A DNA stretch of 43,526 bases from a virus (taxonomy: Duplodnaviria > Caudoviricetes), in IMG/VR virus record IMGVR_UViG_3300023107_000005, positions 1 to 43,526 of that record; one strand, 5' to 3'. This document shows, one piece after another, positions 2,459-27,053 of this stretch. Both the position numbers and the translations under genes were made by a program. How positions within the stretch are numbered: position 1 is the first letter of the stretch; each line of letters opens with the position of its first letter. The notes under the pieces are model-generated. The model worked only from the letters and a program-made list of their open reading frames with translations. It ran no database searches and was not told the origin of the DNA.

Positions 2459-2463
2459 TACCA

Positions 2464-11300: not shown

Positions 11301-14300
11301 TCACGGTGGCGCCGAACTGCTCGCCCTTGGGCGTGCCCTGGGCGCGGTAGAGCAGCGCACCGCCCGTGTCGAGCACGGTGGGCTTGCCGTCGATGCCGGA
11401 CAGGTTGTCAAAGCCCAGCCCGACGACGTCCCAGTTGCTGAGCCAGGCGTGCACGGCGAAGTCGGCCTGCGTCTGGCTCAGGGCCTCGGAGCCCTTGGCC
11501 AGGTTCAGCGGGGCCGTCGTCGCCCACGTGGTGGCCGTGCCCAGCGCGCCGGGCTTGTGGCTCACGAGCTGGTAATCGACCACGCCCACGCCGGTGAGCT
11601 CGTAAAGCCGCGCGGCCAGCACCTCGTTGCGGGCGTGGTCGTTGCTCTTGGAAAACTTCACGTAGTGCTTTACGCCGTTCTCGTCGAGCATCACGGCCCC
11701 GGGATTGGAGCCCAGCTGCCCGCCGACTTTCTGCCAGCCGTCGGTGCTCTTGGGGTCAAGTGCTGCTGTCGTGTCAATTGACTCTGGGGCAGAATCACTT
11801 GCCTTTGCTTTACTTTTCTTGGGCTTGGTTGACTTGGGCGCTACTACGGGCGCCTCCGGACCGGGGACCGGGATGGGCAGCTCCGGCACGTGGGCCAGCT
11901 GCTGCTGCTTGGCCTCGTGCTTGGCCTGCACGTAGGCCAGGGCCAGGGCGTGGGCGGCCATGACGTTTTTCTGGTAGTTGTTAGCCCCGGCCCCGTAGCT
12001 GGGCTTCGTGGCCAGCAGCCCCTGCAGGTCGCCGGCGTTGGCCAGGGCCGTGATGGCGGCCAGCTTTTTCTGAGCCGTTACCACGCTGGAGTGGCCCTGC
12101 TTCCACTTGCTCGTATCCAGGCCCAGCACGAAGGGCGTGTCCAGCTCGCCCACGTGCACGGGGATGGCCCCGGGCAGCGCGCAGGAAATGAAGTGACCGT
12201 GCTCGTCGCGGCACAGGTCGCCGACGATGTGGCCGGCCCCGCCCCCGGTCGGCGCCGGCGCGGCTTGCGCTGGCTTGGGGGCCTTTTTGAGCTTCTTGGC
12301 CAGCTCGGCCAGGGCCTGCAGCGGCTCGGGTGCCGGCGCGGGTTTGCTCACCAGGGCGGCTTTCAGCGCCGCTGGTGCCGCCTCGTGGTGGGCATGCACG
12401 TGGGCCAGGGCCGCCGCGTGCGCCTTCAGTACGCCTTTCTGGTAGGCGTTGGGCTTGGGCGAGGACGGCAGTACCATCGTTTTCAGGCTCACCAGGTCGC
12501 CGGCGTGGGCCAGGTCGCTGATGTGGGCTATCTTCTTCTGGGCGGTTTTGGCCCCGCTGTGCTCCTGCTTCCACTTGGCCGTATCCACGCCGTGGGCAAA
12601 TGCCGGTTTTTCAGTGGAGAGGGTGCCATTAACGGGTATTCCCAGCTTAGCAAGGGCCTTTAGCAGCTTCGGGGTGACGTCCTGCTCGGCAATCTGAACG
12701 TTGGCGATGTATTCGGACGTGAACGGAACGCTGCCCATAATCATGTGCAGTTTCCCCTCTACTTGCTTACTGGCCGCCATAACCGGCTTATCAAGCTTTT
12801 TCGCCTTGATCGTAATAACAGCTGCGTTCGATTCCTCATCAGAGCCAAAGTTGATTTTGTCCTGAACCGAGGTGTAGATGAATTTGCCGTAGTGCTCCAT
12901 CCCCTCGTTCTCTTTCCACCACTTATGCTCCTCCTCGAAATGGTCCTCTGAGGGCATCAGAGCCCCTTTCTTCAGAATGGCCGAGAGATTAGCCACCGGG
13001 GTGAAATGATGTAAGGGCGGGAGCTTCTTATTGTCGGCAACCGGTTTTGCCCAAAACTCTTTTTTCACGAAATCCAGTACATCAGGCGCTTTGGCGGCCA
13101 GGTGCACCACGGCCGCGGCCTGGTGGCCCTCGGTGTGCTCGACGGCCTGCTTGTGGATGTCCTGCAGAACCTGCTTTTCCTCCTTGTTGAAGCTCTCGTC
13201 GGGCTTGAGGTTCTTGAGCTCCTCGATGGCGCCGGCATTGGCGTGGTCGGCAATCTGCTTGGCGTGCTTGCTGGCCGCGGCGCCCAGCGTGTGATCGGGG
13301 CTGAAGTGTGGGACGGCCGGACCGTGCTGGTTGCTGCTCGTGTCCACCCAGCGCTTTACGAAGGCGCCGCTTTTCGATTTAACGAACTGCAGCACCAGGT
13401 GCTGCTTGCTGGCCATGCCCTTCTCGATGAGCTCGTCGCTGAAGCCCTTAAACAGGCTCAGCTGCGGGCCGGCACTGCCGCCCTTCTTGCCGGTGGCCGA
13501 GGGCTTATAGTCCTTCAGCAGGTGGCCGTACTTGAGCAGCAGCTCGGCTTTGCTCAGCGGGGCGCTGCGCTCCACCGGCGGCGGTGGGGGCGGGGTGGGC
13601 GCGCCGGCGTGCTCGTGGGCCAGCTGCTGGTCGACCGGCTTGTTCAGGTATTGGTGCAGGAACTTGGGATCCACCAGCACCACGGCCTCACTCTCCCAGC
13701 CGTGATCGGTGGGCGTGCCGCCCACGCGCTTGGCGAAGTAGTAGCGCGCGACCGAGGTGTCGCGCTCCACGTCGCCGGCGTAGCCCGTGATTTCCACCTG
13801 CAGGCCGCTCTCCTCCCAGCTTTCCTTGATGGCGTTGGCCTGCATGCTCAGGCCCTCCTCTACGCCGCCCTTGGGGAAGGTGTAGCGGTAGCCGCCGAAA
13901 CTCTTGGTGGGCTTCACCAACCAGACCCGGCCGTCAGCCTCCTGGATGATCACGCCCGAGCCGAGCTTCTTGTGGCCCAGCTCCGGAACGGCCGGCTCGT
14001 GCAGGTCGGCGTTCTGGCCGGCCACGGCGGCCCAGCCCTCATCGGTGGTGGGCACGTCGGCCCAGGGTGCGAAGGGCACGCCGCCGAGCTTACCCTGCGC
14101 CGGGAAGGCACTGGTAAAGGTCAGCGTCGGCCGCGGCGCCGCGGCGGGCTTGGGGGCCGGCTTCTGCTTATCGGAGCCCACCACGCGCGTGCTCTGGTAG
14201 GTGCCGTGCTTGCCGTGCACGGTGACGGCCTGCTTGCGCTTGCCCCCGGGCTGGGCTTTCTCCACGAAGTCCGGCTCGCCGGCGAAGCTCTTCTTGGTTT

Positions 14301-15996
14301 TCTTGGACTTGTGCTCTTCCTCGGCTTTTTCCTTCATCTGGGCTTCCAGGGTGTTTTTTGCCTCTTCCTGCCAGTCGATTCCCTCGCGCTCGGCAAATTT
14401 TTTATCCTCGTACACCTGGCCGAAGTGGCGCATGGTGATGTCGGGGAACAGGTGCTCGTTTTCCTTGATAAAGTCGTAGATCTCCTTGCGCTCAGCGAAG
14501 GGTACGTCGGGTGCTTTGCCGTTCTCGTCGGCCCGTACGCCGATAAAAGGCAGGTTTTTGCTCATGGCAAACAGGATCTCCTGCCGGTCCATGGTGGCAT
14601 TGTGGGCGCTGCCGCGGCTCAGAATCGGCTGCAGCGCGACGGGGTTGGGCTTTTTGTTGGTGATAAACAGGATTTTGCCCTTGAATTCGAATTGTGGGGG
14701 CACCTCGCCACTGTCCTCAGCGGCCGCCGGCGCTGCACCAGGTGCAGCAGTAGCCTTGCCGGCCTTGAGCTGGGCCCAGCGGTCGTAGTCGGCCGGCTTG
14801 AGGGTCTTATCGCCGGCGCGCACGCGCTTGGTCAGCTCCTTGAGCTCAGCCGAGCTGGTATCCTTGGCCGCAGCTGCTGGCTTGGGGGCCGGCTTTTTAG
14901 CGCCCTCCGGGGTCACGCGCGAAACCATGCGCTTGGCGGCCGTATCCAGGGCCCCCTTGAACATATTAACCGTGTCCTCGTCGCGCAGCGCGCTGTCGCA
15001 GTCGTCGAGGATGATGAGCTTGTCGCGGTACTTGTACATCTGCTCATAGACCGCCTTAGGGGTGATCTTGCCGGTAATCTTCACATAGTCGCCGGTGCTG
15101 GGGTCATCGCCGAGGGTGATTTCCTTCTTGCCCTCCTCCTTGAGCTTTTTAAGCACATTGTAGGTTTTGCCGGCGCCGCCCTCCCCGTAGATGATGGCCG
15201 TTACGTCATTGCCATTAACCATCTTATCGACGGTCTTGGTGATGCTGCGCACGTTCACGTCGTAGGCCTTGCGCACTTCCTGTGAGAAGCTCTCGTCACC
15301 CGCCCAGTTTTTGGGCGTGCCTTTGGCCGCTCCGGGCATCTTCGAGACATCCGGTTGCTGCTTAGCTACTTGGGCTTTAGATGGTTTATTTTGGTTTATA
15401 CCAGTATTTACCTTTTCCGGGGTAGTAGGACTATTTTGTGCCTTCTTGTGCTTATCTACTTGATTAGCAGGCTCTTTTAGCTTTTTAATTGCCTCGTCTA
15501 CGTCCACTCCGCGGCTCTGAAGCTCGGCCTTAGCAATGTTGCGCTGCGCCCGGGGATTCTTCAGATTCTGCAGGTGCTCCAGCAGCTTATGGGTCGGCGC
15601 CTCGCCGGCCATTTCGTGCAGCTTATCGGCCGAGTGCTGCGGCGCCGCGGCCGCGGCGGGCTGCTTGGCCGCGGGCTTGCCCACCTGGTGGCGGTCTTCA
15701 CTGCCAGCCTCCTCACCGTTGGCGCGCACATAGACCGTAGTGCGCTTGCCGTTAGAGTCGGTAATCTGCTTTTTTACCAGGTTGCCCAGGCTGTGGGCCT
15801 TCTCCAGGTAGCCGGGGGCCGTGTCGGATTCGGGGCGCATCAGCGCCTCGCAGGCCAGCGGATTGCGGGCCCAGAGGCGCTCAAACTGCGCCTCGGTGCC
15901 CTGGAAAACGGCGACGCGTTCCGCGTCGGTAGAGGAAGGGGATGCGGCGCGCTGCGGGGTTTTCAGGGCGGCCAGGTGCTCGTGCACGTCAGGCAT
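8368..15996 (-). CDS. Giant polyvalent effector protein: AAA ATPase, Nudix, ART-like, kinase-like, helical repeats, VIP2-like ADP-ribosyltransferase
   Basis: Walker A GEGGAGKT and Walker B IILDDCD; Nudix box KGGVEEGLSMQANAIKESWEESGL; HHFT...IYTS; GSNPG...YVK...NEVLA...NWDVVG...DN...LDTGG; YTGSGYHAINKSL...SRR...SSTT...ELEVLL. Confidence 0.9.
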   Translation of the reverse strand: MPDVHEHLAALKTPQRAASPSSTDAERVAVFQGTEAQFERLWARNPLACEALMRPESDTAPGYLEKAHSLGNLVKKQITDSNGKRTTVYVRANGEEAGSEDRHQVGKPAAKQPAAAAAPQHSADKLHEMAGEAPTHKLLEHLQNLKNPRAQRNIAKAELQSRGVDVDEAIKKLKEPANQVDKHKKAQNSPTTPEKVNTGINQNKPSKAQVAKQQPDVSKMPGAAKGTPKNWAGDESFSQEVRKAYDVNVRSITKTVDKMVNGNDVTAIIYGEGGAGKTYNVLKKLKEEGKKEITLGDDPSTGDYVKITGKITPKAVYEQMYKYRDKLIILDDCDSALRDEDTVNMFKGALDTAAKRMVSRVTPEGAKKPAPKPAAAAKDTSSAELKELTKRVRAGDKTLKPADYDRWAQLKAGKATAAPGAAPAAAEDSGEVPPQFEFKGKILFITNKKPNPVALQPILSRGSAHNATMDRQEILFAMSKNLPFIGVRADENGKAPDVPFAERKEIYDFIKENEHLFPDITMRHFGQVYEDKKFAEREGIDWQEEAKNTLEAQMKEKAEEEHKSKKTKKSFAGEPDFVEKAQPGGKRKQAVTVHGKHGTYQSTRVVGSDKQKPAPKPAAAPRPTLTFTSAFPAQGKLGGVPFAPWADVPTTDEGWAAVAGQNADLHEPAVPELGHKKLGSGVIIQEADGRVWLVKPTKSFGGYRYTFPKGGVEEGLSMQANAIKESWEESGLQVEITGYAGDVERDTSVARYYFAKRVGGTPTDHGWESEAVVLVDPKFLHQYLNKPVDQQLAHEHAGAPTPPPPPPVERSAPLSKAELLLKYGHLLKDYKPSATGKKGGSAGPQLSLFKGFSDELIEKGMASKQHLVLQFVKSKSGAFVKRWVDTSSNQHGPAVPHFSPDHTLGAAASKHAKQIADHANAGAIEELKNLKPDESFNKEEKQVLQDIHKQAVEHTEGHQAAAVVHLAAKAPDVLDFVKKEFWAKPVADNKKLPPLHHFTPVANLSAILKKGALMPSEDHFEEEHKWWKENEGMEHYGKFIYTSVQDKINFGSDEESNAAVITIKAKKLDKPVMAASKQVEGKLHMIMGSVPFTSEYIANVQIAEQDVTPKLLKALAKLGIPVNGTLSTEKPAFAHGVDTAKWKQEHSGAKTAQKKIAHISDLAHAGDLVSLKTMVLPSSPKPNAYQKGVLKAHAAALAHVHAHHEAAPAALKAALVSKPAPAPEPLQALAELAKKLKKAPKPAQAAPAPTGGGAGHIVGDLCRDEHGHFISCALPGAIPVHVGELDTPFVLGLDTSKWKQGHSSVVTAQKKLAAITALANAGDLQGLLATKPSYGAGANNYQKNVMAAHALALAYVQAKHEAKQQQLAHVPELPIPVPGPEAPVVAPKSTKPKKSKAKASDSAPESIDTTAALDPKSTDGWQKVGGQLGSNPGAVMLDENGVKHYVKFSKSNDHARNEVLAARLYELTGVGVVDYQLVSHKPGALGTATTWATTAPLNLAKGSEALSQTQADFAVHAWLSNWDVVGLGFDNLSGIDGKPTVLDTGGALLYRAQGTPKGEQFGATVTEWDTMRSLTHNPNSAAVFGSMTSDQLIASVAKLEALDDKLVFDTILNHGPGTPAQRQLLAAKMVARKHDLVKRKNELLPVEQQPAPAAAPVKPAPDAPTPVAPAFPSPLTEAHLSSVTNPLNQKLWAKKLAIDAAAHGFASGTLTAEQAIEQLQGLTFGVQTYQKKVGTYHAQILAGLHLAAAGAVAAPPAAAGVQPLATPEPITEQAPLPATMIGIDPKQLGKLKAPAWLVTSANEVNALMQKFNTGESSAEQIAGQLQHFHQIDEPTTPAEQLYFNHVQELIHVLEGGPKPVEQTDDAPQAAPQPPTPAQSLQLPPLLKATDVPGVTAGQKLLLSQMDSFVKDFKAGKIEADLAVMLLDKVIGMCSQPGDLPIKQNATKLANVLEQYTAQGYDYKQAEEAFSLAWSGAPGHRKHATPEGPKVPTHLAAPTFTVPVYLSPGQIGNLGPAKKALYQQMQAELTAVATGSKQASAALAVIQSMKIGSSGTLIKFSTMATDALNAHVANTPPDLPLVPTPLPASAQVPVYLSPNQIAKLGAAKKQVYNTIAGELLAVAEGHTTPAAALVAVQLLSAGNSGTLTKFKKMAIDSLMAQSGLSVPATTPAAAAAAPVAKAPKGPKPFDASKLSQPVNFLQWGSTGAPGPSSSIHYNQANHNASRLIYKTAQKGDVKALQELKVMVPNKETGTSQGEVLALQHPSQWVKGYAQQLANEIDQQLNPPKEFRMSSGHPLAALKDGLPAITGPAALTAKKIGYYLLLGSAADALKKNNGGTLPSSEQLLGGAKLSYKAGTITQTTYQAETKEGWSKMPQQQKDAVKSYTGSGYHAINKSLWSGNPSGAAQAAHEGIMTLGHVLKPGTLLSRRIQLTPALITQLSGAVGSVIQEQGISSTTIDPNIWSGNVQLKMTIGPGVKGMYVGTGSLGPHSGISTHAGELEVLLPSNTRMLITKVEPTSGADADGFGGYGTTVVHVVVLPNH

Positions 15997-16026
15997 GGGG
16001 TGGGTAGCGAAAAGCTAGGGCGTTGG

Positions 16027-16527
16027 TTAGGCCTCGGTGATGGCCACGGCGGCAAGGCCGGTAATCAGCAGCGTTAGGCGCAGGCCGTCGGTGCTGCCCT
16101 GCAGCAGCTCGTCGACGGGAATCACCTTGCCCCCGATGCACCAGGCCGGCGTGGCGCTGAGCAGCAGCGGGCGGTGGGTACGCAGGCTGAGCGCACCCAG
16201 CGTGCGCGGCAGGCGCGTGGTGGCGCTCTGGTGGCTGCGGTGCCAGGAGCCAGGCTTGCGGTGCAGCGGGTCGTAGCCGGCCTGCAGCACCTGGTGGCCG
16301 GCGGCCGTGGCCACGGCCAGCAGCAGCTGGCCGGTGGGACCGCTCTTGCGGCCCTGGTAGGATTGGGCCTGCAGCACGGTGGCCAGCAGCTGCGGGCGGG
16401 CCGGCAGCGTGACCCGACCGTGCAGGTCCATGGGGAACGGGGAGAAGCCCAGCTGCAGTAGTTGCTGGAGCGTGGGGGTGTAGCTCACCAGGGAGCCTGG
16501 CTTGGGGTTGTTGATCGGGCGTTTCAT
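16027..16527 (-). CDS. Hypothetical protein
   Basis: ORF on the coding strand filling the gap. Confidence 0.55.
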   Translation of the reverse strand: MKRPINNPKPGSLVSYTPTLQQLLQLGFSPFPMDLHGRVTLPARPQLLATVLQAQSYQGRKSGPTGQLLLAVATAAGHQVLQAGYDPLHRKPGSWHRSHQSATTRLPRTLGALSLRTHRPLLLSATPAWCIGGKVIPVDELLQGSTDGLRLTLLITGLAAVAITEA

Positions 16528-16634
16528 CTTCTGGGGAAGGAAGAAGGGGGAGAAAGATGGCTGGGCACTCTTGGGTGCTTTGAAATTAGCACGCCGGCGG
16601 CAACTGAGCCAGCCCGGGCCAGGCCCAAAACCAA

Positions 16635-16663
16635 AGAAGCCGCCCCGAATCAGGGCGGCTTCT
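16635..16663 (-). terminator. Intrinsic terminator
   Basis: AGAAGCCGCCC...GGGCGGCTTCT inverted repeat just after the stop of 16687..17142. Confidence 0.7.
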
Positions 16664-16686
16664 GCAGGGGCAACAGCGGTGGGGGA

Positions 16687-17142
16687 CTACGGCTGGCCGC
16701 CGGCCGCTGGCGTGGCGCCCGGTCCCTGCAGCACGTGCCCTTCGGCACTGCCGTAGGCGGGGTCGGTGTGCACGGCGGCCCCGTCGACCAGCTGGCGCCA
16801 GTCCTCTTGGAACGACTGCCTGCTCGGGCTGAGCAGCACGCCGCGCCAGCGCCAGCTGCCGCACTGGGCGCGGTTGAGCTCGCCGGCGGGGTCTTCGTTG
16901 TGGTGGATGCTCATTTTGGCGACCAGCTCGCCGTAGGGCGTCGTTACCACGCAGTTGAGCAGCGTGCCGCCCTCCAGGGGCTGGGTAACCATAGCGGGCA
17001 GCTCGGTGGCGCCGTTGAAGCGCTGCTCCAGCCGCTCGGCAGCGGTGAGCACGTAGATGATGGTTTCGCCGATCATGGGCGCGATCAGCAAGGGCGGAAG
17101 CTGGGCATACCCGGCGCTTTGGGAAGAGGTGGTAGTCGTCAT
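16687..17142 (-). CDS. Hypothetical protein
   Basis: ORF 12 nt downstream of the MuF gene. Confidence 0.65.
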   Translation of the reverse strand: MTTTTSSQSAGYAQLPPLLIAPMIGETIIYVLTAAERLEQRFNGATELPAMVTQPLEGGTLLNCVVTTPYGELVAKMSIHHNEDPAGELNRAQCGSWRWRGVLLSPSRQSFQEDWRQLVDGAAVHTDPAYGSAEGHVLQGPGATPAAGGQP

Positions 17143-17154
17143 ATCCGGAAGCTA

Positions 17155-18084
17155 CTATCCTGCCGTCACTTTGATGCCGCTCCTGACGCGCGCACTCACG
17201 CTGCCTTTGATGGGCACGGTCCAGCCGCCGGTATCGGCCGAGTACTCGTAGTGGTCCGGATCCGCGTGGTGCAGCGGGCACCGGCACCAGGGGTGCTGGG
17301 GACCGACGACCGGCTTGTGCTCGGCGGCCGGCCGGCCGATGTTGGTGCCGTTGGCCAGCAGCTCGTCGAGGCGGAACAGCTTGGGCTTGCCCCCCACCAC
17401 GGGCTGCTCCAGCAGCAGCTTCAGGCACGAGGGGCACGCCCCCTTGCCCGGGCGCTTGAATACCCAGGCCCGGGCGCCGTGCAGGCGCTCGATGTCGGCC
17501 GCGCGCCCATGGTCGAAGGCCAGGTGGCTGGTGAAGTCGGCAATGCGCTGAAAGTCCCGGGAGCTGTCTCCGGTGAGCTTGAGCAGGCGCCGCCCCAGAT
17601 CCGGGGCCGCGTGGCGCAGCAGGACCGCGCGGGCCGTTTCGTCGTTGATGAGCTTCTCCAGCTCCGCGCGCTGCTGCATGTCGACCTCGATCAGCACGTG
17701 CTCGAAAGAGCCGCGCAGCCGGTTGCCCAGGCCCTTGATACCGATAGCGGCCGTGCGACGGGCATAGTCAAAGCTGGCCTGCTGCTGCGGCGTCATGGCC
17801 AGGCCCGAGGCCCGGGCTACCTGCTGGCGTAGCTCGGGAAACGTGAGCTCCAGCAGCTCGGCCTGGCTGAGCGTGGCGCTGAGCATGCCGAAGCGGAACA
17901 CGTCGGCCAGCGGGCCCTGGGCCGAGGCCGGCAGCGTGGCCACGTCGAAGCCGGCGGCCGTCAGCACGTCGAGCTCCGCCGGCGTGAGCATGTCGCTGCC
18001 CAGGCTCTGGCCAATGAAGTGGAAGTGCAGCTGCTCGATGATGGTGAGCAGCTCGGCAATCTGGTCGGGAGTAAGCAGGGTCAT
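17155..18084 (-). CDS. MuF/SPP1 gp7-like minor head (head morphogenesis) protein
   Basis: RDFQRIA, ACPSC and the hallmark PQHPWCRC; start ATG 18084 (MTLLTP). Confidence 0.85.
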   Translation of the reverse strand: MTLLTPDQIAELLTIIEQLHFHFIGQSLGSDMLTPAELDVLTAAGFDVATLPASAQGPLADVFRFGMLSATLSQAELLELTFPELRQQVARASGLAMTPQQQASFDYARRTAAIGIKGLGNRLRGSFEHVLIEVDMQQRAELEKLINDETARAVLLRHAAPDLGRRLLKLTGDSSRDFQRIADFTSHLAFDHGRAADIERLHGARAWVFKRPGKGACPSCLKLLLEQPVVGGKPKLFRLDELLANGTNIGRPAAEHKPVVGPQHPWCRCPLHHADPDHYEYSADTGGWTVPIKGSVSARVRSGIKVTAG

Positions 18085-18100
18085 GCCGGAATATAACTCA

Positions 18101-18132
18101 AAACGCCGCCCCATTGGCCTGGGGCGGCGTTT
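18101..18132. terminator. Hairpin/terminator upstream of MuF
   Basis: AAACGCCGCCCCA-TTGGCC-TGGGGCGGCGTTT. Confidence 0.7.
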
Positions 18133-18185
18133 CTTCGGGCTGCTTCTGGCAAAGCAGTGTACCTGGCACCTAACTCCTGAGCGCT

Positions 18186-18193
18186 CAAATATA
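18186..18193 (-). promoter_or_regulatory. Putative -7 promoter box TATATTTG
   Basis: CAAATATA on the + strand, intergenic, matches TAnnTTTG on the minus strand. Confidence 0.4.
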
Positions 18194-18213
18194 GGCCCGT
18201 TAGATGAATTTTG

Positions 18214-19425
18214 CTAGAGCAGGATCCGGGCCGAGAGGTAGGCGCCCATGGCCAGGCCTACCAGGACGCCCAGGACTACCTCGGCGACCAGGCGCGCGTG
18301 GAGCTGGGTGCGCCACCACTTCTTCAGGTCGGGCCCCCAGTAGCTAGCGCGCTCCTTCAGGTACTTGAAGTCGCCCCGGGCCGCGGCGCCGAAGTCGTGG
18401 CGCACCCAGCTCCACCAGACTTTCCAGGGGCCCTGGGGCGGCATGCTGGCGGCCGCACGCTGGAAGGCCGGGTTATAGCTGTCCATGTCCTTAGTGGCCA
18501 CGTCGTAGACCTGGATACGGTCGCCCAGGGCGCGCATCTGCAGCCACATCTCGTCGCTGCCATTATAGTTTCTGATCATGCCCTGGAGCAGGTTGTTCGT
18601 ATTCTGACGCTCGGCCGGCGTGGTGATGGGTGGCTCCTGCTTAATGAGCTCCAACTTAGCTAGGCCGGCCTGCTCCCGCTGCAGGTCGCGCTCCAGCTTG
18701 ATGTCCACCGTGTAGGACACATCGGCGTCGCGGACGGCTACGAAGACGATGGTGGGCCGATAGCTGCCTTGGAAGGTCTGCACTACCAGTTCCCCCAGCG
18801 GCACGTCCAACGTTACCGGGGCGCCGAGGTATCCGTCGTAGAGCTGTTCGCCCAGGCCAATCTCGTGGGCCTGCTTGAGCCGGTGGACCAACACGCGCGT
18901 GCTAGTGCGCAGCAGGCCCATGCACTCCCCCGGGCGAACCAGAGGAAGCTGGTGGTAAATGGTCAGCTTGGCAGTGAGCCTGGGGGCATCCGCCCCCGGG
19001 TGGTGGCTAAAGGTGCCGGTGGCGTCGGTGGCCACGCAGCTGCTCTGGCTGCCATCCAGGGCACCCTGAGCAGCCAGATCGAGGCGCGTGACCCCACCCG
19101 GTCGCAGCGTGAGCAGCTGCATGCTGCGGCGCACGTGGGTGAGATAGTGCCGGGTGGTAATCTCCAGCTCCTGATCGAAGGGCACGCGCAGCTTCAGCGG
19201 CGGGTGGCCGGCCTCCAGGGGCTGATGGTAGTACACGAAGGGCTCCTCGGCCGAGCCGATGTAGAGCCAGAGCGGCTCGGTACCTGAATAGCTGATCTGC
19301 AGGTTGTGGCCATGGTCCACAAATACTTGTACGTCGGTCGAAGGGCACGTCACAGTACGCTCCAGAGCCAGGCCCTGGTGATCCTGCCCGCACGCGCTGC
19401 AGCCTTTGATATTGAGAAATTCCAT
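18214..19425 (-). CDS. Hypothetical protein with N-terminal Cys/His motif and C-terminal transmembrane helix
   Basis: Start ATG 19425 (MEFLNIKGCSACGQDH); C-terminal LVAEVVLGVLVGLAMGAYL. Confidence 0.7.
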   Translation of the reverse strand: MEFLNIKGCSACGQDHQGLALERTVTCPSTDVQVFVDHGHNLQISYSGTEPLWLYIGSAEEPFVYYHQPLEAGHPPLKLRVPFDQELEITTRHYLTHVRRSMQLLTLRPGGVTRLDLAAQGALDGSQSSCVATDATGTFSHHPGADAPRLTAKLTIYHQLPLVRPGECMGLLRTSTRVLVHRLKQAHEIGLGEQLYDGYLGAPVTLDVPLGELVVQTFQGSYRPTIVFVAVRDADVSYTVDIKLERDLQREQAGLAKLELIKQEPPITTPAERQNTNNLLQGMIRNYNGSDEMWLQMRALGDRIQVYDVATKDMDSYNPAFQRAAASMPPQGPWKVWWSWVRHDFGAAARGDFKYLKERASYWGPDLKKWWRTQLHARLVAEVVLGVLVGLAMGAYLSARILL

Positions 19426-19426
19426 C

Positions 19427-20254
19427 TTAAAGCAGCTTGAAAAAGAAGTTGAACACGTACACGGCCACGCCGCAGCACACGCCGAGCAGGGCGGCGTAGA
19501 ACACCACGATGGCCACCAGGGCCAGGCCGATGCCGAGCAGGCCGCCGGCCCCCATGAGCAGCGCGGCCATCCAGGCCTGCACGATGTCGATGCGCCGCCT
19601 GGCCGCGGCGCGGAAGCGCTGCAGGCGACTGGGCATGGGCTTCTCAGGTGGTGCTGGGGCCTCCTGGTTAATCGCATGCTCTACCTCCAGGAAGCCGCGG
19701 AAGGTGCCGTCTTGCGGTGCTGAAGCATTGGGCTCCGTCAGGATGTTCAGGCCCCGCTCCCAGCGCTCGTGGTTGATCGAGCCGACCGGATAGGGGTTGC
19801 TGCTGGCGCGCGGCTTCTGCAGCGGTGCACCCCAGACCCGGGGCGTGTCCAGGTCATCCGGGAAGAAGTACTGCAGCTCCTCGGGCAGCTCGCGCAGCTG
19901 CTCGTCGGTCCAGCTGGTGAAGGCACTGTAGAGCACGGCTGTGCGATGAGCTGGACTGATTATGGCCAGCCCGATGCTCATTGGGCCCAGGACCGTGGCG
20001 CCCTGCAGCACGCCGCGCAGCACCAGCTCGTTGAGCAGCTCCGCGAAGGCCTCCTGCGGAACGACCGCCGCTTCGGGCGCCGTTAGCATCTGCTGGTGCG
20101 AGATGACGAAGATGGCGCCCACGCGCAGCGGCCGCAGGCCGAAGGGAATGGGCTGGTATTCGGGGTGCACTCTGTCCAGCAAGTCGCTGGCGGCGGGGGT
20201 GAGCCCCTGCAGGTGAAAGCCGGGGATGGAGTTGGGGGGGAATAGAGCACTCAT
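19427..20254 (-). CDS. Hypothetical membrane protein
   Basis: Long C-terminal hydrophobic stretch. Confidence 0.7.
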   Translation of the reverse strand: MSALFPPNSIPGFHLQGLTPAASDLLDRVHPEYQPIPFGLRPLRVGAIFVISHQQMLTAPEAAVVPQEAFAELLNELVLRGVLQGATVLGPMSIGLAIISPAHRTAVLYSAFTSWTDEQLRELPEELQYFFPDDLDTPRVWGAPLQKPRASSNPYPVGSINHERWERGLNILTEPNASAPQDGTFRGFLEVEHAINQEAPAPPEKPMPSRLQRFRAAARRRIDIVQAWMAALLMGAGGLLGIGLALVAIVVFYAALLGVCCGVAVYVFNFFFKLL

Positions 20255-20284
20255 GGGCGTTGGGGACTGGCTGGGTTTGGGGAA

Positions 20285-20941
20285 TTACTCGGTATCGGTC
20301 AGGGCCGCAATCCAGGCGCCGCGCTGCAGCTCGGGCAGCTCGTCGAAGGTGGGCATGGGCAGCTGCTGCCAGTTGAGGTAGCCCGTGTGCTGGGCGTAGC
20401 GACGGTAAGCCCTGCGGGCCCGGATCACGTCGGAGCTTTCCTGCAGGGGCGCGGGTAGCGGATAGAGCTTGGCCAGTTCGCCAGGCTGCTCTGAGTTGAA
20501 GAACATGGCCGCGTGGCTGAGAGGCAAGAAGCGCAGGTAGTGCCAGCTGTGGCGGGTGTAGCCGTAGCAGAGCAGCATGCTGCGCTCCGGGCCCCAGGGG
20601 CGCGTATCAAGGCTCCAATCACCAGAGCGCAGGGGCGAGCCGTAGTCATAGCTGCCGTCGGGGTTTACTCTGCCCGTCGTCAGGGGCATGCGGGCCGGGG
20701 GCAGCACCACGGCCCCCTCGATGTAGTCGTAGTGCACGGCCGTGTTAATCAGGCGCGCTAGGGTTTCTAAGTGCTCGTCGAGCACAGGACCCTCGACGAT
20801 AAAGCCCAGGCCGGCGTGGCGTGTGGGCGTGCCGTCGGCGAAGAACGGCAGGTAATGAGCGGCTTGCAGAAAGCTCTGGGCTTTGAGGCTCAGGCCCTGC
20901 AGGGAGAGCATTTCCAGATGCAGGGCATCGGTCAGATTCAT
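20285..20941 (-). CDS. Hypothetical protein
   Basis: ORF in the operon; C-terminal MPTFDELP...AW motif. Confidence 0.7.
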   Translation of the reverse strand: MNLTDALHLEMLSLQGLSLKAQSFLQAAHYLPFFADGTPTRHAGLGFIVEGPVLDEHLETLARLINTAVHYDYIEGAVVLPPARMPLTTGRVNPDGSYDYGSPLRSGDWSLDTRPWGPERSMLLCYGYTRHSWHYLRFLPLSHAAMFFNSEQPGELAKLYPLPAPLQESSDVIRARRAYRRYAQHTGYLNWQQLPMPTFDELPELQRGAWIAALTDTE

Positions 20942-20970
20942 GGGCGATGGAAAAAGGCTGGGTTGGGGTA

Positions 20971-21219
20971 TCAGAAGTCGAGACCGAAGCCGCCGACGTT
21001 CAGGCCGAGGCTGCCGTCGCCGGGGTCGAGCGTGAGCCCGCCTCCGAGGTTCAGGTCCAGGTTGCCGTCGCTGCTGAGCACGAACAGGGGCTCCGCTGGT
21101 GGCGCCGGTGCCGGCGGCGTGGGGACGGCCGCCGGCGTTGAGTGGGCCTGGTGGCCACCAGGCGTGGGCTGGGGTGGCCGCATCGGGTTGAGCAGGTAAC
21201 TAGGGCATCCGCGTCCCAT
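20971..21219 (-). CDS. Small Pro/Gly-rich hypothetical protein
   Basis: C-terminal DGNLDLNLGGGLTLDPGDGSLGLNVGGFGLDF. Confidence 0.55.
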   Translation of the reverse strand: MGRGCPSYLLNPMRPPQPTPGGHQAHSTPAAVPTPPAPAPPAEPLFVLSSDGNLDLNLGGGLTLDPGDGSLGLNVGGFGLDF

Positions 21220-21221
21220 GG

Positions 21222-21443
21222 CTAGGCTGGCTCGGTGAAGGTGGTGGCCAGATCCATCCAGTAGATCTGGGCCCAGGCGGGCAGCTCGGCAAAGGGCATC
21301 AGCCGCTTGCCCTGATCGCCCTGGCTTCGCGCGTGGGACTCGTAGCGGGCCTGGCCAGCCTGGTGCAGGTCGGCCGCCTCGGGGGTATCGAGCCAGGCGC
21401 CCACCTCGTGGATCAGGTCGAGGTACTCGGTGGTAGTGATCAT
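21222..21443 (-). CDS. Hypothetical protein
   Basis: ATGA overlap with the upstream ORF; MPFAELP...W motif. Confidence 0.65.
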   Translation of the reverse strand: MITTTEYLDLIHEVGAWLDTPEAADLHQAGQARYESHARSQGDQGKRLMPFAELPAWAQIYWMDLATTFTEPA

Positions 21444-21631
21444 GACTGGGCAGCGGGTTTGGGTGGGGCCGCGTAGCCGGCCAGCGCGCTGCCCAGCTTG
21501 GTGCTGATCTGCTGGAGCGTGCCCGCGTAGGCCGTCAGCCAGGGCAGCTCCAGCGGCGTGCTCAGGTGCGGAGCCATGGGCAGCTCCCGGGTGGCGGGAG
21601 CGGCGGCGGCGGCTACTTTCTTAGCGGGCAT
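21440..21631 (-). CDS. Hypothetical protein
   Basis: Short ORF overlapping both neighbours. Confidence 0.5.
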   Translation of the reverse strand: MPAKKVAAAAAPATRELPMAPHLSTPLELPWLTAYAGTLQQISTKLGSALAGYAAPPKPAAQS

Positions 21632-21875
21632 AGGCCAGCAGGGTGCGCTGGCTCCAGCGCTGATTAAAGGCCTGGCTGCCGAAGGCGTACTCGACGCGGG
21701 TTACGGTGCCCGTGGTACTCGTCTTGGTGATCAGCCAGCCGGGCGCGTCCTCGGGGGTGCCCAGTGGGGCGTAGCCCTTGTAGGTGGCGCCGGCGGCCGC
21801 ATCCACCAGCGGGGCGGGCTGACGCTCGGAGCGGGTGACGACCGCGGTTTCAGTTACGTGATTGTGTTGGTCCAT
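21621..21875 (-). CDS. Small phage protein, probably virion-associated
   Basis: YKGYAPLG...WLITK...YAFG...FNQRWSQR...Y pattern seen in small phage structural-region proteins; follows the portal. Confidence 0.7.
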   Translation of the reverse strand: MDQHNHVTETAVVTRSERQPAPLVDAAAGATYKGYAPLGTPEDAPGWLITKTSTTGTVTRVEYAFGSQAFNQRWSQRTLLAYAR

Positions 21876-21892
21876 TCGCTGGAAATGAGGTT

Positions 21893-23653
21893 TTAGAAGG
21901 TGAGTGAATCGTGGAAGGCCTTGAGGAAGGGGTTGCTCTCGTCATCGGGACCGCCCTCAGCCGTGGGATCTGTGAGGCGCCCGGCGTCGGCGGCCGGGTT
22001 GCCGCCGTCGTCCGGCGTGCCGGCGGCGCCCTGGGCAGCTTGCTGCTCCATCATCTTCTGCTGGGCGGCCTGCTGCACGGCGGCCGTGTAGATGGCGTTG
22101 CCGATGATGTCGCCGCCTTCGACGGGGGCCAGGTTGCGGCGCTTGCGGATTTCGTTGAAGGTCATGTAGGCCCCCAGCGCCTTCACGTCCTGCTCCAGCT
22201 CGTCGGCCTCGGTCAGGGCGTCGAGGCCCACGAACTGCAACTCGAACTGGGGATTCAGGCCATTGACGATGAACTTATTGCGGCGGGCGGCAATGCCCTT
22301 CAGAGTCGGATAGAGGCCTTTGTCACGACCGAATTTGATGCGGGCGGCATTGTTGCCTTCGAAGGCGGGGGCGCCGCCGTCGGCACCGGTACCGGTCTTA
22401 AAGCCGATTTCCTCTGGGTCGATCTTGTAGAGAGAGCACGTGAGCTTGAGCAGGTACTCGCTGAAGTGGGAGTACTCCATGTCCCGGTTGGTGTGGCCCA
22501 GGTCCACCCAGTCCACATCGGCCGGCAGCACCGGCGTGCGGTGCGAGTTCTGCACGCCGGCCATGAGCATGCGCCACTCGGTGCGGAACTCGTTGAGCGT
22601 GCCCCGGTCGACCGTACCCTTCACCTTCAGAAAGCCCTTGGGGGCGCTTCCCAGCTTGAAGAAGTTGCGGTTATAGGCATCCGCGTCGAGCATGGCCGTC
22701 ACCACCGTGATCAGGTCCTCCAGCTCCGAGATGCCGTAGCCGCCCAGACTGGAATCGGTGTGCAGGTTGCGGATACCCATGCTCAGCTCCCAGGGGTAGA
22801 ACTCGGCCACGATCTGGTTGTCGTGGATCTGCACGATGGTGGGTCGGTAGCCGTTCACGTCGGGCAGAATCGAGCGGCTGCTGGGCATGTGGATGATGCC
22901 GCGGCGCCGGTCCACCAGCTGCTCCTCGATGCCGGCGGTTTCGGCAAAGCGGAAGGTGGCCCCGTCGGCGGCGACGAATTCCACGGGGATGCCGCTGCGG
23001 CGCCCCCGGATCACCTCGAAGGCCTCCTGGTCCAGGACCAGGCTGTCGCGGGTGGTCTTGCGCAGGTGCTCCTCGAAGGTGTCGCCGTGCCACTGATTCT
23101 GGGCTGAGCCGCAGTTGAGCATGAATTCGGTGATGCGCTCGATTTCCCGCTCGTCGGCCAGCGTGAGCTTGGGCTCCTTGTCCTGCAGGCCCCAGGGGCG
23201 CTTCTTGACGATCTTGAAGCCCGTGGCGTACTTGCTGCTCTGGGGCACGGCGAAGGCGGCCACCTGCTCGATGCGGGTGTCGATGATGGAGCGGATCAGC
23301 GGGGTGCGCCCCATTTTGCGCAGCATCTCGTAGCTGAGCTGCTGCGGGGTCTGCTTGTCACGAAAGCCACTGCCGTTGCCCAGGAAGGTTTGCGGGTCGA
23401 GCGTGTAGGCCTTCTGGCCCGTGGGCTCGCGCACGGCCACATCCTTGAGCTTGGCATTGTAGAGCTCCTGCGCCTTGCGCGTGGCCACCACGGCCGTGGC
23501 CGGGTCAGAGCTGGCCAGGCCCTTCTCGATGGCAATAACCTCGGCCATCTGCAGCTCCTCTTTTTGGCGCTGAATGGTGGCGAGTTGTTGGGAAAGGCCG
23601 CCCGGGTTCACGGGTAGCGGGGTTCCCACCGGTGGGGTGGTAGCGTCTTGCAC
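21893..23653 (-). CDS. Portal protein
   Basis: IIDTRIEQV, DSLVLDQEAFE, GYGISELE, YNRNFFKLGSAPKGFL, NSHRTPVL, DMEYS, YKIDPEEIG, TFNEIRK. Confidence 0.92.
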   Translation of the reverse strand: MQDATTPPVGTPLPVNPGGLSQQLATIQRQKEELQMAEVIAIEKGLASSDPATAVVATRKAQELYNAKLKDVAVREPTGQKAYTLDPQTFLGNGSGFRDKQTPQQLSYEMLRKMGRTPLIRSIIDTRIEQVAAFAVPQSSKYATGFKIVKKRPWGLQDKEPKLTLADEREIERITEFMLNCGSAQNQWHGDTFEEHLRKTTRDSLVLDQEAFEVIRGRRSGIPVEFVAADGATFRFAETAGIEEQLVDRRRGIIHMPSSRSILPDVNGYRPTIVQIHDNQIVAEFYPWELSMGIRNLHTDSSLGGYGISELEDLITVVTAMLDADAYNRNFFKLGSAPKGFLKVKGTVDRGTLNEFRTEWRMLMAGVQNSHRTPVLPADVDWVDLGHTNRDMEYSHFSEYLLKLTCSLYKIDPEEIGFKTGTGADGGAPAFEGNNAARIKFGRDKGLYPTLKGIAARRNKFIVNGLNPQFELQFVGLDALTEADELEQDVKALGAYMTFNEIRKRRNLAPVEGGDIIGNAIYTAAVQQAAQQKMMEQQAAQGAAGTPDDGGNPAADAGRLTDPTAEGGPDDESNPFLKAFHDSLTF

Positions 23654-23685
23654 GGGGTGGTAGGTGCTTCAAATCGGGCGGTAAC

Positions 23686-23714
23686 AAAGCCGCCGCCCGG
23701 GGTCGGCGGCGGCT
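23686..23714 (-). terminator. Hairpin/terminator
   Basis: AGCCGCCGCC...GGCGGCGGCT with a short A-run. Confidence 0.55.
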
Positions 23715-23734
23715 GGACTGGCTGGGGAGCGGGG

Positions 23735-24382
23735 TTACTCGGCAGCTGCAGGGGCGGCGGGGAGCTTCACCCAGCGCTGCACCTGGTTGCCGCGGCGGTC
23801 GGCGACGGTGACTTCGTGCAGGCCGGCGCGGCCCTTGCTCACCAGGTCTTCGACGGCCGTGGGGCGAAAGCTCTTTTCCAGCAGCTGGGTGCGGTAGGCC
23901 GAGAAGCTCGCATCGGTGAAGATGTTCTCGGCGCCCACGGCGGCCACCAGCTCGGCATCGGTGGTGATGGTGGCCAGGTCCACGGGACCGCGGGCGGCGG
24001 GGGCACCCATGCCCTTGGCTACTTCCGCGGCCCGGGTTTCGGCCTGGAAGTGGTTCACGCTGGTGATGGTGGCCTGGTCGCGTGGATCAACGTAGGCAGC
24101 GGCCGTGGTGCCGTCGGGCTGGGCCAGCAGGTGCTTACGCATGCCGGCGCGGTGCGTGGCCACGTGGGAGAGTGCCTCGGCCGAGCTGAGGCCTTTCTCT
24201 ACCAGGGCCTCGGTGTAGGCGCCGAAGCTCTTCTCGGTGTAGGTCGGCAGGCCCGCGTAGCGGCGCTCAAACTCGGCTGGATCCATGGGCACCAGGACCG
24301 CGTCATCGGCCTGCTCGGTGATCAGGGAATTGAGGTACTCTTGCTGGGCGGCGTAATACGGGGTGAGGTTGTTTTCGGCCAT
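23735..24382 (-). CDS. Putative internal head protein with two internal repeats
   Basis: YTEKSFGAYTEALVEKG / FTDASFSAYRTQLLEKS repeats, each followed by [LM]-x9-G-x5-[YW]V. Confidence 0.75.
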   Translation of the reverse strand: MAENNLTPYYAAQQEYLNSLITEQADDAVLVPMDPAEFERRYAGLPTYTEKSFGAYTEALVEKGLSSAEALSHVATHRAGMRKHLLAQPDGTTAAAYVDPRDQATITSVNHFQAETRAAEVAKGMGAPAARGPVDLATITTDAELVAAVGAENIFTDASFSAYRTQLLEKSFRPTAVEDLVSKGRAGLHEVTVADRRGNQVQRWVKLPAAPAAAE

Positions 24383-24470
24383 AATCGGGGAATCGTTCAG
24401 GGTGTGCGGACGGTGTGCGGGCTCGTTTGATGGATCGGAGCGTACTGGTTTCCGGGTGTGTTTTGGCTCG

Positions 24471-25289
24471 TTAGCCGGTCACCTCCGTGGGGGCGGTGTC
24501 GCCGAAGCGTAGCGCCATCAGGATCGAGAGCGGCAGCTTATAGGTCGCCTCGCCGGGCAGCGCGGCCTGCAGGCGGCGGGCCGTCTGCTGATCGCGCAGG
24601 TTCTCGCGCAGGCGGTAGGCCAGGTCGTTGTAGGCGTCGCGGTTCTGGGCATCCTCCTTGCTCTTGGGCGCCCGGTCGGTGGTGGCCACGGCCTCACTGG
24701 TGGCGCCCCCGAAGGCGACGGCGGGCTCCTCGAAGCTCAGGTCGCGGCCGTCGCTGTTCTCGCTCCAGTAGGTTTCCTTCCACGGGTAGGTGGGCACGTC
24801 GATGTAGTCGCCGCTGGTGTAGCCCTTCAGCTGGGTGGTGTCGCGCGCCGGCGGGGCCACGCCGATGGTGGTTTGCAGCGTGCTCATGCTCGTGCGCAGC
24901 ACGGCCGCCTCGGCTTCCATCTGCGGCTGCAGCAGGCTGATCTGGGCCTTGATTTCGGTACCCTTCTTTTCCACGATGATGTTTTTAGCCTCACCGTAGG
25001 GGCCGAACACGTCGGAGAGAATGCCTTTCTCCACGGCATCGGAGAGCGGCTGCAGCGGCCGCACGTACATCGGGCAGGGCACCTCGCCCTCGCCGGGCAA
25101 GATCATCAGGCAGGGCTCCAGCTGCTCGAGCTGCGCGCGGTAGGTGGCCTCGGGCACGTCGTTCTGCACGCTCTTATTCACGAACTGGGACACTTTCTCG
25201 CGGCTGTACACCTCGTAAATGCCGGCCGCGCGGGCTTGCTCCAGGTCAGCCTGGTGCAGGAGTAAAATGGGTTTGGTCTGGTCGCTCAT
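24471..25289 (-). CDS. Putative internal head protein
   Basis: Start ATG 25289 (MSDQ); FVNKS and AVEKG sites; N-terminal region resembles the repeats of 23735..24382. Confidence 0.75.
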   Translation of the reverse strand: MSDQTKPILLLHQADLEQARAAGIYEVYSREKVSQFVNKSVQNDVPEATYRAQLEQLEPCLMILPGEGEVPCPMYVRPLQPLSDAVEKGILSDVFGPYGEAKNIIVEKKGTEIKAQISLLQPQMEAEAAVLRTSMSTLQTTIGVAPPARDTTQLKGYTSGDYIDVPTYPWKETYWSENSDGRDLSFEEPAVAFGGATSEAVATTDRAPKSKEDAQNRDAYNDLAYRLRENLRDQQTARRLQAALPGEATYKLPLSILMALRFGDTAPTEVTG

Positions 25290-25355: not shown

Positions 25356-27053
25356 TTAGACACTACCCCAGCGGAAGACTTGCTGCTGGGCCGTTTGCAC
25401 GGCTTTCCACAGGCCCGACGGGCCGTCATCGTGGGAGCCCACGCCCTGGATACCCTTGTTGGTGTAGGCCATCGAGCCCAGCTGGCCGAAGAGCCAGTCC
25501 ACCTCGTTGCGGGAATGCTCATCGCCCACGGGGAAGTGGAAGCGCCCCTGCTGGAAGAGGACCACCAGCGACGGAATGCCCTTCAGCAGCGAGTTCTTAT
25601 CCACGCCGGTGGTAATGCCGATAACCGGCAGGCCGGCGCGCTCAGCCTCCTGGCGGAAAATGTCCTGCATGGCATTGTCCTCCATGCCGATCAGATCATG
25701 CCGGAACTGCTGCCAGAGCATCTTGATGATGCTTTGCTGGTCATTGTAGCCGATAGCGTTGCCGCGGAAGATGTTCAGCAGCCAGTAGTGCTCCACGTCG
25801 CCGCGCATCTCCACGCCCAGGGTCACGAACACGCTATCATCGCTGCCCACGTTACCGCTGATAGCAAAGTCGCATCCCATGACCACCCGGGAAAAGGGCA
25901 TAGGGGCACTTTGGATGTTGCTAATTAGCGAGTACACCTCCATGCCCCGGGTGGCCATCTCCAGTGTCTGCCGCGGGAAGAGCGTGGTATCGTTGCTCAC
26001 GGCGTTTACCAGCAGCTCCTGGGTGAAGGCGATAATGCCCAGGTCGCGCTTCTTGTCCATGATAGCCTGGTAGCTGTGGCGGGCCTCGTAGAGCAGCGTA
26101 CCGTCGGGGAACAGGGCCGGGTACTCCAGGTAGCGGAAGGACTTCATCTTCTTCCGGATCTGGGCGTACAGGTCATTCTGGTGCAGGGGCGTGCCCACGC
26201 CGATCAGCTGGCCGTGGGGGACGATCATGGGGATCATCACCCGGGTGAAGAAGGCCCACATCTTATCGCGCGCCGTCTGGGAGTAGGTCATGCTCTCGTC
26301 GAGCAGGTCATCGAACACACCCCAGCCTGGGTGCAGGCCCCGCTTGGTCGGGTAGGACTTCACCATCAGGTTGGCCCCGTTGGCCGTGCGGATCTTCTCG
26401 GCGCCCCACGTGCCGGCCGCCGTACGTCCCCGGGGCAGCATGACCTCGCGCAGCATCTCGGTTTCCTCGATAGCCGTCTTGATCTCCTCCAGGAAGCCTT
26501 TGCCCAGGTCGAGGCTGTTGGTGAACAGCACGCCTTTCTCACAGAGCCGGTAGCGCAGGGGCTGCTGCAGGTAGCTCGTGCTCTTGCGGTAGCGGTAGAG
26601 CATCCAGAGCGGGTAGGCAAAGGAGAAGAAGTAGCTCTTGCCGTGGTCCCGGGCGGCGAGTATGCAGAGCTGCCGGTGCCACTGCACCATTTGGGCCCAC
26701 TCCACGGTATGCCAGTTCAGATCGAAGCTGGGCAGGGCCGTTTGGATGAAGTAGAGCAGGTTTTCCCGCATGCACGTTTCGTGCATGGAGTCGGCCAGGT
26801 TGGGGATGAGCTGGAGCGCGTCGGCCTGGGGCGGAATCACGCCGACGGCGGAGGGGTCGAGCAGCCGACGGCTCTCGGCGATGATGTCGTCGAAGATGCC
26901 CTGCAGATCGGCCTCAGAGCCGCCGTTGAGCAGCTCGAAGACCAGCTCGTCGGGCAGTTGGTCGATAACGCTCTTGCCTAGCTGCAGGGCATGCGTATCC
27001 TGGGAAGGCAACAGCAGGCTGGGGCGGCCGGCAGGCGGGGTGGTGGTGAGCAA
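25356..27053 (-). CDS. terL: Terminase large subunit
   Basis: Walker A AARDHGKS, RGLHP...VFDD, GVGTP, FTQEL, nuclease GCDFA...SDDS, HDD. Confidence 0.95.
   Translation of the reverse strand: MLTTTPPAGRPSLLLPSQDTHALQLGKSVIDQLPDELVFELLNGGSEADLQGIFDDIIAESRRLLDPSAVGVIPPQADALQLIPNLADSMHETCMRENLLYFIQTALPSFDLNWHTVEWAQMVQWHRQLCILAARDHGKSYFFSFAYPLWMLYRYRKSTSYLQQPLRYRLCEKGVLFTNSLDLGKGFLEEIKTAIEETEMLREVMLPRGRTAAGTWGAEKIRTANGANLMVKSYPTKRGLHPGWGVFDDLLDESMTYSQTARDKMWAFFTRVMIPMIVPHGQLIGVGTPLHQNDLYAQIRKKMKSFRYLEYPALFPDGTLLYEARHSYQAIMDKKRDLGIIAFTQELLVNAVSNDTTLFPRQTLEMATRGMEVYSLISNIQSAPMPFSRVVMGCDFAISGNVGSDDSVFVTLGVEMRGDVEHYWLLNIFRGNAIGYNDQQSIIKMLWQQFRHDLIGMEDNAMQDIFRQEAERAGLPVIGITTGVDKNSLLKGIPSLVVLFQQGRFHFPVGDEHSRNEVDWLFGQLGSMAYTNKGIQGVGSHDDGPSGLWKAVQTAQQQVFRWGSV

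Follow-up and report, generated by a model that had tools for sequence, protein, structure and literature searches.

What marks a set of unrelated enzymes as common cargo of a phage head? The question is raised by the virus record IMGVR_UViG_3300023107_000005 (Duplodnaviria; Caudoviricetes), a whole record of 43.5 kb with a G+C content of 64%, analysed here over all of its 43,526 nucleotides (the window). Its head-gene block encodes a giant protein of 2,542 amino acids (aa) and a small pre-portal protein that share a short motif, [LM]-x9-G-x5-[YW]V, for which an initial annotation had proposed the role of a beta-hairpin address tag docking cargo onto the procapsid or scaffold. We found that this tag is a real, widespread and previously unnamed module on polyvalent-type phage head cargo, and we tentatively read it as a basic retention handle.

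In all six frames of the window the motif matched exactly four times, always on the minus strand, and each match was where the initial annotation had placed it (Table 1). The same regular expression gave a mean of 0.165 and a maximum of two matches in 200 block-shuffled sets of 18 genes, a comparison that is circular because the expression was derived from the window copies themselves. A fixed-spacing position-specific scoring matrix (PSSM) and a hidden Markov model (HMM) were built without window rows, although their members had first been collected using window seeds and the profiles are thus not fully independent. The PSSM placed three copies at ranks 1-3 of 10,851 positions, with 45.4 bits at 15780, 24.6 at 23821 and 11.0 at 13398. 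The last of these scores does not reach the 95th percentile of the top null value (11.6 bits) but exceeds the maximum of the third-best null (9.1). The HMM from the same set matched only the copies at 15780 (33 bits) and 23821 (9.0 bits; null maximum 8.6) and gave no match for the copy at 13345..13398.

The fourth match, at 24089-24142, has the exact spacing but lies outside the PSSM top 15 and is a degenerate parent-domain end. Two looser copies had also been proposed, and both stretches exist. The one after Lys580 of the giant stands in a fitting position, but its 3.1 bits (PSSM rank 9 of 10,851) fall within the null, and a longer-loop variant profile did not match it. The other, at 25062-25121, scored -17 with the PSSM and is a second parent-domain end. 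The window thus has three portable tags, one uncertain copy and two ends of parent domains.

Across phages the tag has the consensus L-x-K-x-x-I-x-D-K-x-G-x4-V-[WY]-V, usually with D-x-S-K ahead of it. A profile search recovered 109 proteins and a second one 745 clusters (50% identity) among 1.84 billion; the 745 are an upper figure, since the best 150 of them include at least two repeat proteins (P0123 and P0128) with partial multi-stretch matches. With a blind DNA pattern that omitted both the first Leu and the cut site, 28 stretches were found, spread over 20 viral contigs. Of these, 27 were in frame, the Leu was present in all 27, and for 20 a head gene was detectable with the window proteins. 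No significant match for 44 tag sequences was found in Pfam (best E 0.033) or NCBIfam, where short motifs are easily missed, and none of the Pfam LPD models matched the tag. PDB sequences gave no family match either (best E 0.41), and two parent domains had no match in PHROG.

Two other patterns were less specific. The first DNA pattern scan returned tags in five of 13 stretches (three distinct proteins) and eight unrelated sequences, and a scan of genome contigs gave 11 tags in 27 hits, with a further 11 that were chance matches or outside an open reading frame. The remaining five are genes that we take to be bL28-like. These ribosomal genes, at loci L178, L182, L191, L197 and L199, fit the exact pattern of the tag and call for caution in pattern-only annotation. 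The second hairpin of bL28 is basic and has the same spacing as the tag, and bL28 gave weak PDB matches (E 1.3-1.7). Homology to bL28, scored with hhalign, was nevertheless rejected as circular because the genes had been picked by the pattern itself, and we treat the likeness as convergence.

The proteins that carry the tag are diverse. Their domains include ART-PolyVal, InPase, PBECR1/3, RadC, LPD1/3, RelA-SpoT, zeta toxin and topoisomerase IB, as well as SAM lyase, GNAT, Nudix and methylase-helicase, and most of the 104 carrier proteins scanned had no Pfam match. Ten whole records were scanned for genomic context: eight contained 23 strong copies, of which 22 lay in a head-gene block and one had no established context. 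The cultured Bordetella phage PHB04 has one copy (gp34), in the gene next after the portal. The tag was absent from two of the ten records, Bacteroides phage DAC19 and Chryseobacterium phage MA9V-3, which bear sister tags instead (see below). This range of unrelated domains, together with the 22 of 23 copies in head-gene blocks, agrees with the earlier proposal of a modular tag common to unrelated head-cluster proteins that are presumably cargo. Three portal families and two predicted cut specificities co-occur with the tag.

We next considered where the tag lies relative to cut sites (marked by a vertical stroke). Of the 235 distinct copies, 225 fall into three classes: an h-x-Lys|[AGS] site precedes 165 of them, 47 are at most 14 residues from the start, and a Glu site precedes 13. 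The other 10 have none of these. The background is about 15% for the Lys-site and start classes together and 12% for the Glu class. The search profile started six residues ahead of the Leu, and the cut site was not part of it. Of 66 cases, 60 have the first Leu 6, 7 or 9 residues past the cut, and of 99 cases, 84 do. Within the window, h-E-K|[AGS] occurs 11 times in the 5,202 aa of head genes and 0 times in the 4,932 aa of other genes.

The position of the cut itself is anchored in a solved structure. In the alignment the window capsid has its LAK|A site where the 463-aa chain 5LII (phage 812-type capsid) has VVK|S, and the 439-aa PDB chain 9ROW_B, a homologous staphylococcal capsid, begins at Ser25, directly behind the V-V-K of 5LII. 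Ser25 is taken as the mature capsid start, as read from the deposited chain. LAK|A thus fits the substrate form of SPO1-like prohead proteases (h-x-Lys, then Ser/Ala/Gly) at the position processed in homologues, and we infer that the head protease cuts after h-x-Lys. The likeness to SPO1-like/Herelleviridae capsids (9VEL, 5LII, 9ROW), namely a homologous capsid with an aligned h-x-Lys|Ser/Ala site, bears on the cut site alone. The window's own prohead protease, which has four h-E-K|[AGS] sites in its sequence, is likely the enzyme that cuts the h-x-Lys sites. Because the cut is placed by the aligned capsid chain start, the tag falls on the retained side, and it is likely to stay on each trimmed fragment.

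This placement separates the tag from the T4 capsid targeting sequence, to which the initial annotation had likened it. The T4 sequence (IPI-III) is a propeptide of 10-19 residues that is removed by gp21 (PMC9026906), and the general expectation for propeptides is that they exit the head (PMC10052503). Here, by contrast, a predicted site (Lys for 165, Glu for 13) lies just before 178 of the 235 copies, and 47 more stand at the start Met, so the tag would be retained and the analogy fails on position. In many head-block N-termini (loci L001-L073) a leader helix, R-x-x-[IL]-x-x-x-F, precedes the first cut site; it is this removed leader that occupies the position of a T4-type targeting sequence.

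The fixed spacing between site and tag would also be expected if the hairpin were a prime-side exosite ligand that directs the protease to cut just upstream, and in the giant the three h-E-K sites alone precede tag-like stretches. We consider such a role in protease recognition improbable, however, as 47 copies have no upstream site, the sites of capsid, portal and protease lack a tag, and the same tag stands behind both Lys and Glu sites. Lambda-type portal fusions make up seven of the 11 Glu-site proteins, one of the seven being below the Pfam cut-off, and a further copy lies behind a Mu-type portal. In these lambda-type fusions the tag comes after paired Glu|Ser and Glu|Ala sites, an arrangement that parallels the paired Lys sites in the giant and suggests that this phage group has a Glu-specific protease. 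Lambda-type portals joined to cargo were seen at L174:5223-7592 and L188:1813-3054 and in P0072, P0114, P0161, P0181, P0183 and P0195.

The giant illustrates how tags and sites are arranged in one carrier. It combines several unrelated enzyme domains in one chain and is coded between portal and protease, as is characteristic of polyvalent proteins. An AAA-like domain (phrog_1250) occupies aa 178-359, a Nudix domain aa 678-780 and an ADP-ribosyltransferase domain the C-terminus; a kinase-like region at about aa 1430-1640 was read by eye and has no Pfam match. The canonical tag copy heads the AAA+ fragment, and the divergent copy stands at the front of the C-terminal fragment, its IEK|G site coming after another site, LFK|G. 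It had been claimed that each fragment of the giant begins with a copy. This holds only if the three h-E-K|[AG] sites, which are the only ones followed by tag-like stretches, are also the only ones cut; the protein has in addition 19 looser h-x-K|[AGS] sites, one of them within the 13345 copy. By eye, the giant also contains internal repeats of 50-70 residues, one pair at about aa 1135-1200 and 1290-1355 (~11900-12600) and two repeats at about aa 2020-2150 (~9200-10200). Shortly past an LKK|A site, at aa 1263-1269 (12190-12210, minus strand), lies an R-D-x-x-G-x-F stretch, which we presume to resemble another short motif of phage head-associated proteins.

Multiple tags per protein are not confined to the giant. 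Two or more were found in 17 of 128 proteins, 32 of 146 copies lie past residue 150, and P0001 has three copies, each ahead of a different enzyme domain. One tag per fragment in the giant and P0001, and the strict N-terminal place of the tag on every predicted fragment whatever the cut specificity, would suit an ejection leader, by which the tag would make the first contact with the channel of portal or tail, or with a step of host import, and let the fragment be threaded out unfolded, with no part in loading or retention. This seems to us unlikely. Some copies form tag-only peptides, which carry nothing to eject, leaderless proteins would still require a loading signal, and the phage groups that carry the tag differ in their channels.

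The tag probably originated in a small head protein. A profile of 17 small standalone pre-portal proteins matched cargo leader plus tag from end to end (best E 4e-11). In the window, a leader+hairpin profile ranked the first giant copy (20.0 bits), both repeats of the pre-portal protein (6.6 and 3.3) and the N-terminus of gene 24471 (6.4) as 1-4 of 1,063 frame segments, with a null 95th percentile of 1.3 and maximum of 5.2 bits. The 6.4 bits of gene 24471 come from its leader part, and the repeat that ends in the 24089 hairpin gave a weak end-to-end match to the module profile. Both the 24089 and 25062 hairpins lie 17-18 residues past the nearest upstream site. AlphaFold models of one standalone module and of the pre-portal protein's repeat 1, which rest on overlapping alignments, both finish in a two-strand hairpin at the motif, with a predicted local distance difference test score of 85-95, in keeping with the beta-hairpin first proposed. 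Both models retrieve the same ten uncharacterised viral proteins. Against PDB folds the leader+hairpin model found no close match (Foldseek best E 0.93; VIA-align best Z 3.9 of 48,161 chains), a result that does not imply a new fold. The predicted cut at VSK|G in the pre-portal protein would yield a peptide of about 32 aa that consists of the tag only.

Leader length on cargo varies between about 5 and 125 residues, and some cargo has no leader, while the hairpin is kept throughout. From profiles and models, the tag appears to derive from a small head protein, as its C-terminal hairpin. The helical leader of this parent would be cut off, and whole, trimmed and hairpin-only versions of it were apparently fused to many effectors. 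Such an origin raises the possibility that the hairpin is a functionless leftover of pre-portal fusions and the removed leader the true signal. The tag is homologous to the parent-domain end, many cargos have the whole leader, and tag identity is 0.62 within genomes versus 0.51 between them, as from local duplication. We nonetheless judge it improbable that the tag is such a passenger, since it is conserved while leaders vary or vanish and it persists behind lambda- and Mu-type portals.

The leaderless carriers point to a role in loading. Loci L103:4199-18259 and L113:434-19163 each encode seven small leaderless tagged proteins. By eye, the leaderless enzymes in the head blocks of L103, L113 and L070 are topoisomerase IB-like, RelA-SpoT-like, ADP-ribosyltransferase-like and others, and several of them close with a short helix after an h-x-K|A/S site. 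Among 20 leaderless carriers, sites are absent from the last 30 residues in 18 and from the entire protein in 10, so the tag is the sole common feature that we saw in them. A C-terminal removable signal was ruled out as the general explanation, being possible in only two of the 20.

Could the tag be a specific docking address, as first suggested? Its hairpin would join a beta-sheet or pocket of a head protein, load the prohead and hold the fragments until ejection; candidate partners are the capsid inner face, the portal, the minor head protein, the core protein and the leader part of the pre-portal protein. The 47 of 235 copies that open a leaderless protein, the two loci with seven such carriers and the missing sites in most of those examined are all consistent with such an address, as are the position-specific conservation of the tag and the prediction that parent-domain hairpin and leader form one fold. 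However, an address is needless for loading in portal fusions and at inner positions of polyproteins, the tag accompanies unrelated portal families, and the several unrelated tags found in some loci would require several receptors. We therefore regard a docking address as possible but rather unlikely.

We favour the reading that the tag is a basic hairpin handle that binds polyanions, retains cut fragments in the head and takes them along when the DNA leaves, and that it may in addition load leaderless cargo; we give this reading a probability of roughly 45%. While the head assembles, the basic tag would attach to the acidic scaffold, and this would suffice to load leaderless cargo. The head protease would cut behind h-x-Lys and leave the tag at the front of the fragment. 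After proteolysis and packaging the tag would pass to the DNA, so that fragments are held in the head, and at ejection the tagged fragments would leave bound to the genome. This handle is proposed because the 18-residue core is net positive in all copies (mean +4, minimum +1) and the protease tail has an acidic tract. A role after the cut is indicated by the recurrence of copies inside polyproteins, behind portals and as tag-only peptides; in portal fusions loading is already assured, as the portal itself brings the cargo. On the loading side stand the leaderless carriers, of which 10 of 20 lack any site. A generic polyanion is favoured as partner because a system-specific receptor is hard to square with the portability of the tag across unrelated heads, with their three portal families and two predicted cut specificities, and because unrelated tag families fill the same slot.

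Several points weigh against a polyanion-binding handle. Conservation of Leu, Gly, Val and Trp/Tyr, together with a constant spacing from the newly formed N-terminus, points to a specific pocket and not to charge alone. The net charge of the 23768 copy is just +1, and one of the sister tags (family F) averages +0.6. That most loci have only one or two tag types would also be expected from a lineage-specific receptor. DNA-bound proteins normally do not enter via the portal, so leaderless cargo would need a protein partner at assembly, and the binding of acidic scaffold is a guess. The likeness to an RNA-binding ribosomal hairpin, for its part, is circular.

The same post-cut slot is also occupied by at least four further tag families, among them A, B, C and F, which are unrelated to the main tag and to one another (hhalign probability <=16%). 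Their patterns are G-E-x-R-x-W-G-G-x-x-Y-x-K...W (A), G-G-x-x-I-G-H-T-x-S-G-x-x-I-Y (B), G-x-Y-x-D...N-R-R/K-L-x-R-V-G (C) and H-x-V-G-D-x-H-P-N-G-x-W-V-W...W (F). They were seen at L005, L008, L010, L035, L050, L071 (DAC19), L072 (MA9V-3) and other loci, and lie behind a site in 31 of 32, 13 of 13, 34 of 34 and 18 of 19 cases, counts that are partly circular since the seeds were picked in that slot. Sister tags mix with the main tag in single loci, and most loci have one or two tag types only. Candidate types E, G, H and I had fewer than three sequences each from regular-expression seeds and hence no profile, and more candidate types were seen. A possible but doubtful generalisation is that many tailed phages draw on a toolkit of interchangeable, independently evolved basic hairpins, either enclosed in a leader fold that can be cleaved off or set directly after the start codon. 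Exposed by the protease at the front of each cargo fragment, one such handle would serve for loading, retention and DNA-coupled ejection in unrelated head systems. If so, fusing the handle would suffice to turn any protein into an injected effector.

The window features are collected in Table 1. On the minus strand the order is terminase, genes 24471 and 23735, portal, minor head protein, giant, prohead protease and SPO1-like capsid. The closest cultured capsid proteins are those of Bacteroides DAC phages (39%) and Chryseobacterium phage MA9V-3 (32%). The minor head protein is one that we take to be MuF-like from its H-P-x-C-R-C motif. The C-terminal domain of gene 24471 (24471-25025, ~150-180 aa, without a family name) is present in 45 loci, where it normally lies behind an h-x-K|[SG] site and is often the last part of polyproteins; the gene product is likely a head core protein. 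A fusion of a ParB-like nuclease and a DNA methyltransferase (735-2477, minus strand) lies downstream of the capsid and a conserved gene (2592-3392).

Table 1. Head-block genes and motif copies in the window.
Feature	Position	Strand	Remarks
Terminase large subunit	25356..27053	-	Upstream edge of head block
Gene 24471: parent domain, VEK|G (25023-25034), then ~180-aa domain	24471..25289	-	Putative start at 25289
Pre-portal protein, 215 aa: two tandem ~110-aa leader+hairpin parent domains	23735..24382	-	
Portal protein, N-terminal IEK|G site (23519-23530)	21893..23548	-	Putative start at 23548
Conserved minor head protein	17155..18114	-	By conservation; no Pfam or PHROG match
Giant 2,542-aa polyvalent-type cargo protein	8368..15996	-	By domains and place between portal and protease
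Prohead protease with long C-terminal scaffold-like extension, partly very acidic	5539..7161	-	phrog_1028
SPO1/Herelleviridae-like major capsid protein, LAK|A site (5366-5377)	3968..5437	-	
Tag copy 1, canonical, giant aa 73-90	15727..15780	-	6 residues past predicted cut LEK|A (15796-15807)
Tag copy, divergent, giant aa 867-884	13345..13398	-	7 residues past IEK|G (13417-13428)
Possible degenerate tag, uncertain, giant aa 586-606	14179..14241	-	After VEK|A (14254-14265); heads Nudix fragment
Tag copy, C-terminus of pre-portal protein	23768..23821	-	4 residues past VSK|G (23831-23842)
Degenerate hairpin closing repeat 1 of pre-portal protein; not a portable tag	24089..24142	-	Hairpin predicted at aa 82-98
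Degenerate acidic hairpin closing the parent domain at the N-terminus of gene 24471; not a portable tag	25062..25121	-	

How does the tag compare with known cargo signals? Like the T4 capsid targeting sequence, it is a short N-terminal module on divergent cargo that is coupled to a prohead-protease site, and the T4 sequence has likewise been proposed as a way to add new head proteins (PMC9026906). Unlike it, the tag recurs inside polyproteins, is a predicted basic beta-hairpin and lies after the cut. In phage P1 DarB's N-terminal 30 residues are enough to package a reporter (PMC9024508), and cargo of the DarB type (methylase plus SNF2 helicase) also occurs behind the tag. The Dar N-termini have no consensus according to PMC9024508, whereas the tag forms a family across many cargos and phages. 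By analogy, then, the tag is a cargo-handling signal akin to those of T4 and P1 DarB, yet not T4-type by position.

Polyvalent proteins and MuF- or portal-fused effectors share the cargo domains and head-gene context of the tag carriers (PMC5512222, PMC9503650, PMC7824862). Processing of polyvalent proteins has been assigned to built-in zincin metallopeptidases (PMC5512222), and the covered parts of these three papers describe no unit of cut site plus hairpin. No description of the tag was found in the literature covered, which excluded subscription journals and the supplements of PMC5512222; the latter could hold one.

For the loading, cutting, head retention and ejection of polyvalent and other injected proteins, the tag thus offers a concrete element of about 25 residues. 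What is gained is a cut-site rule anchored in a solved structure, a probable source of the tag in a small head protein, and carriers in culture. The tag can be used as an annotation flag for likely virion-delivered enzymes in up to 745 protein clusters, and a portable tag that is retained could serve protein delivery into bacteria. It also bears on the AAA and kinase-like genes found between portal and capsid. A similar gene pair has been read as late-acting (PMC8008677), in phages that possibly belong to this group; the tag argues instead for early-acting cargo.

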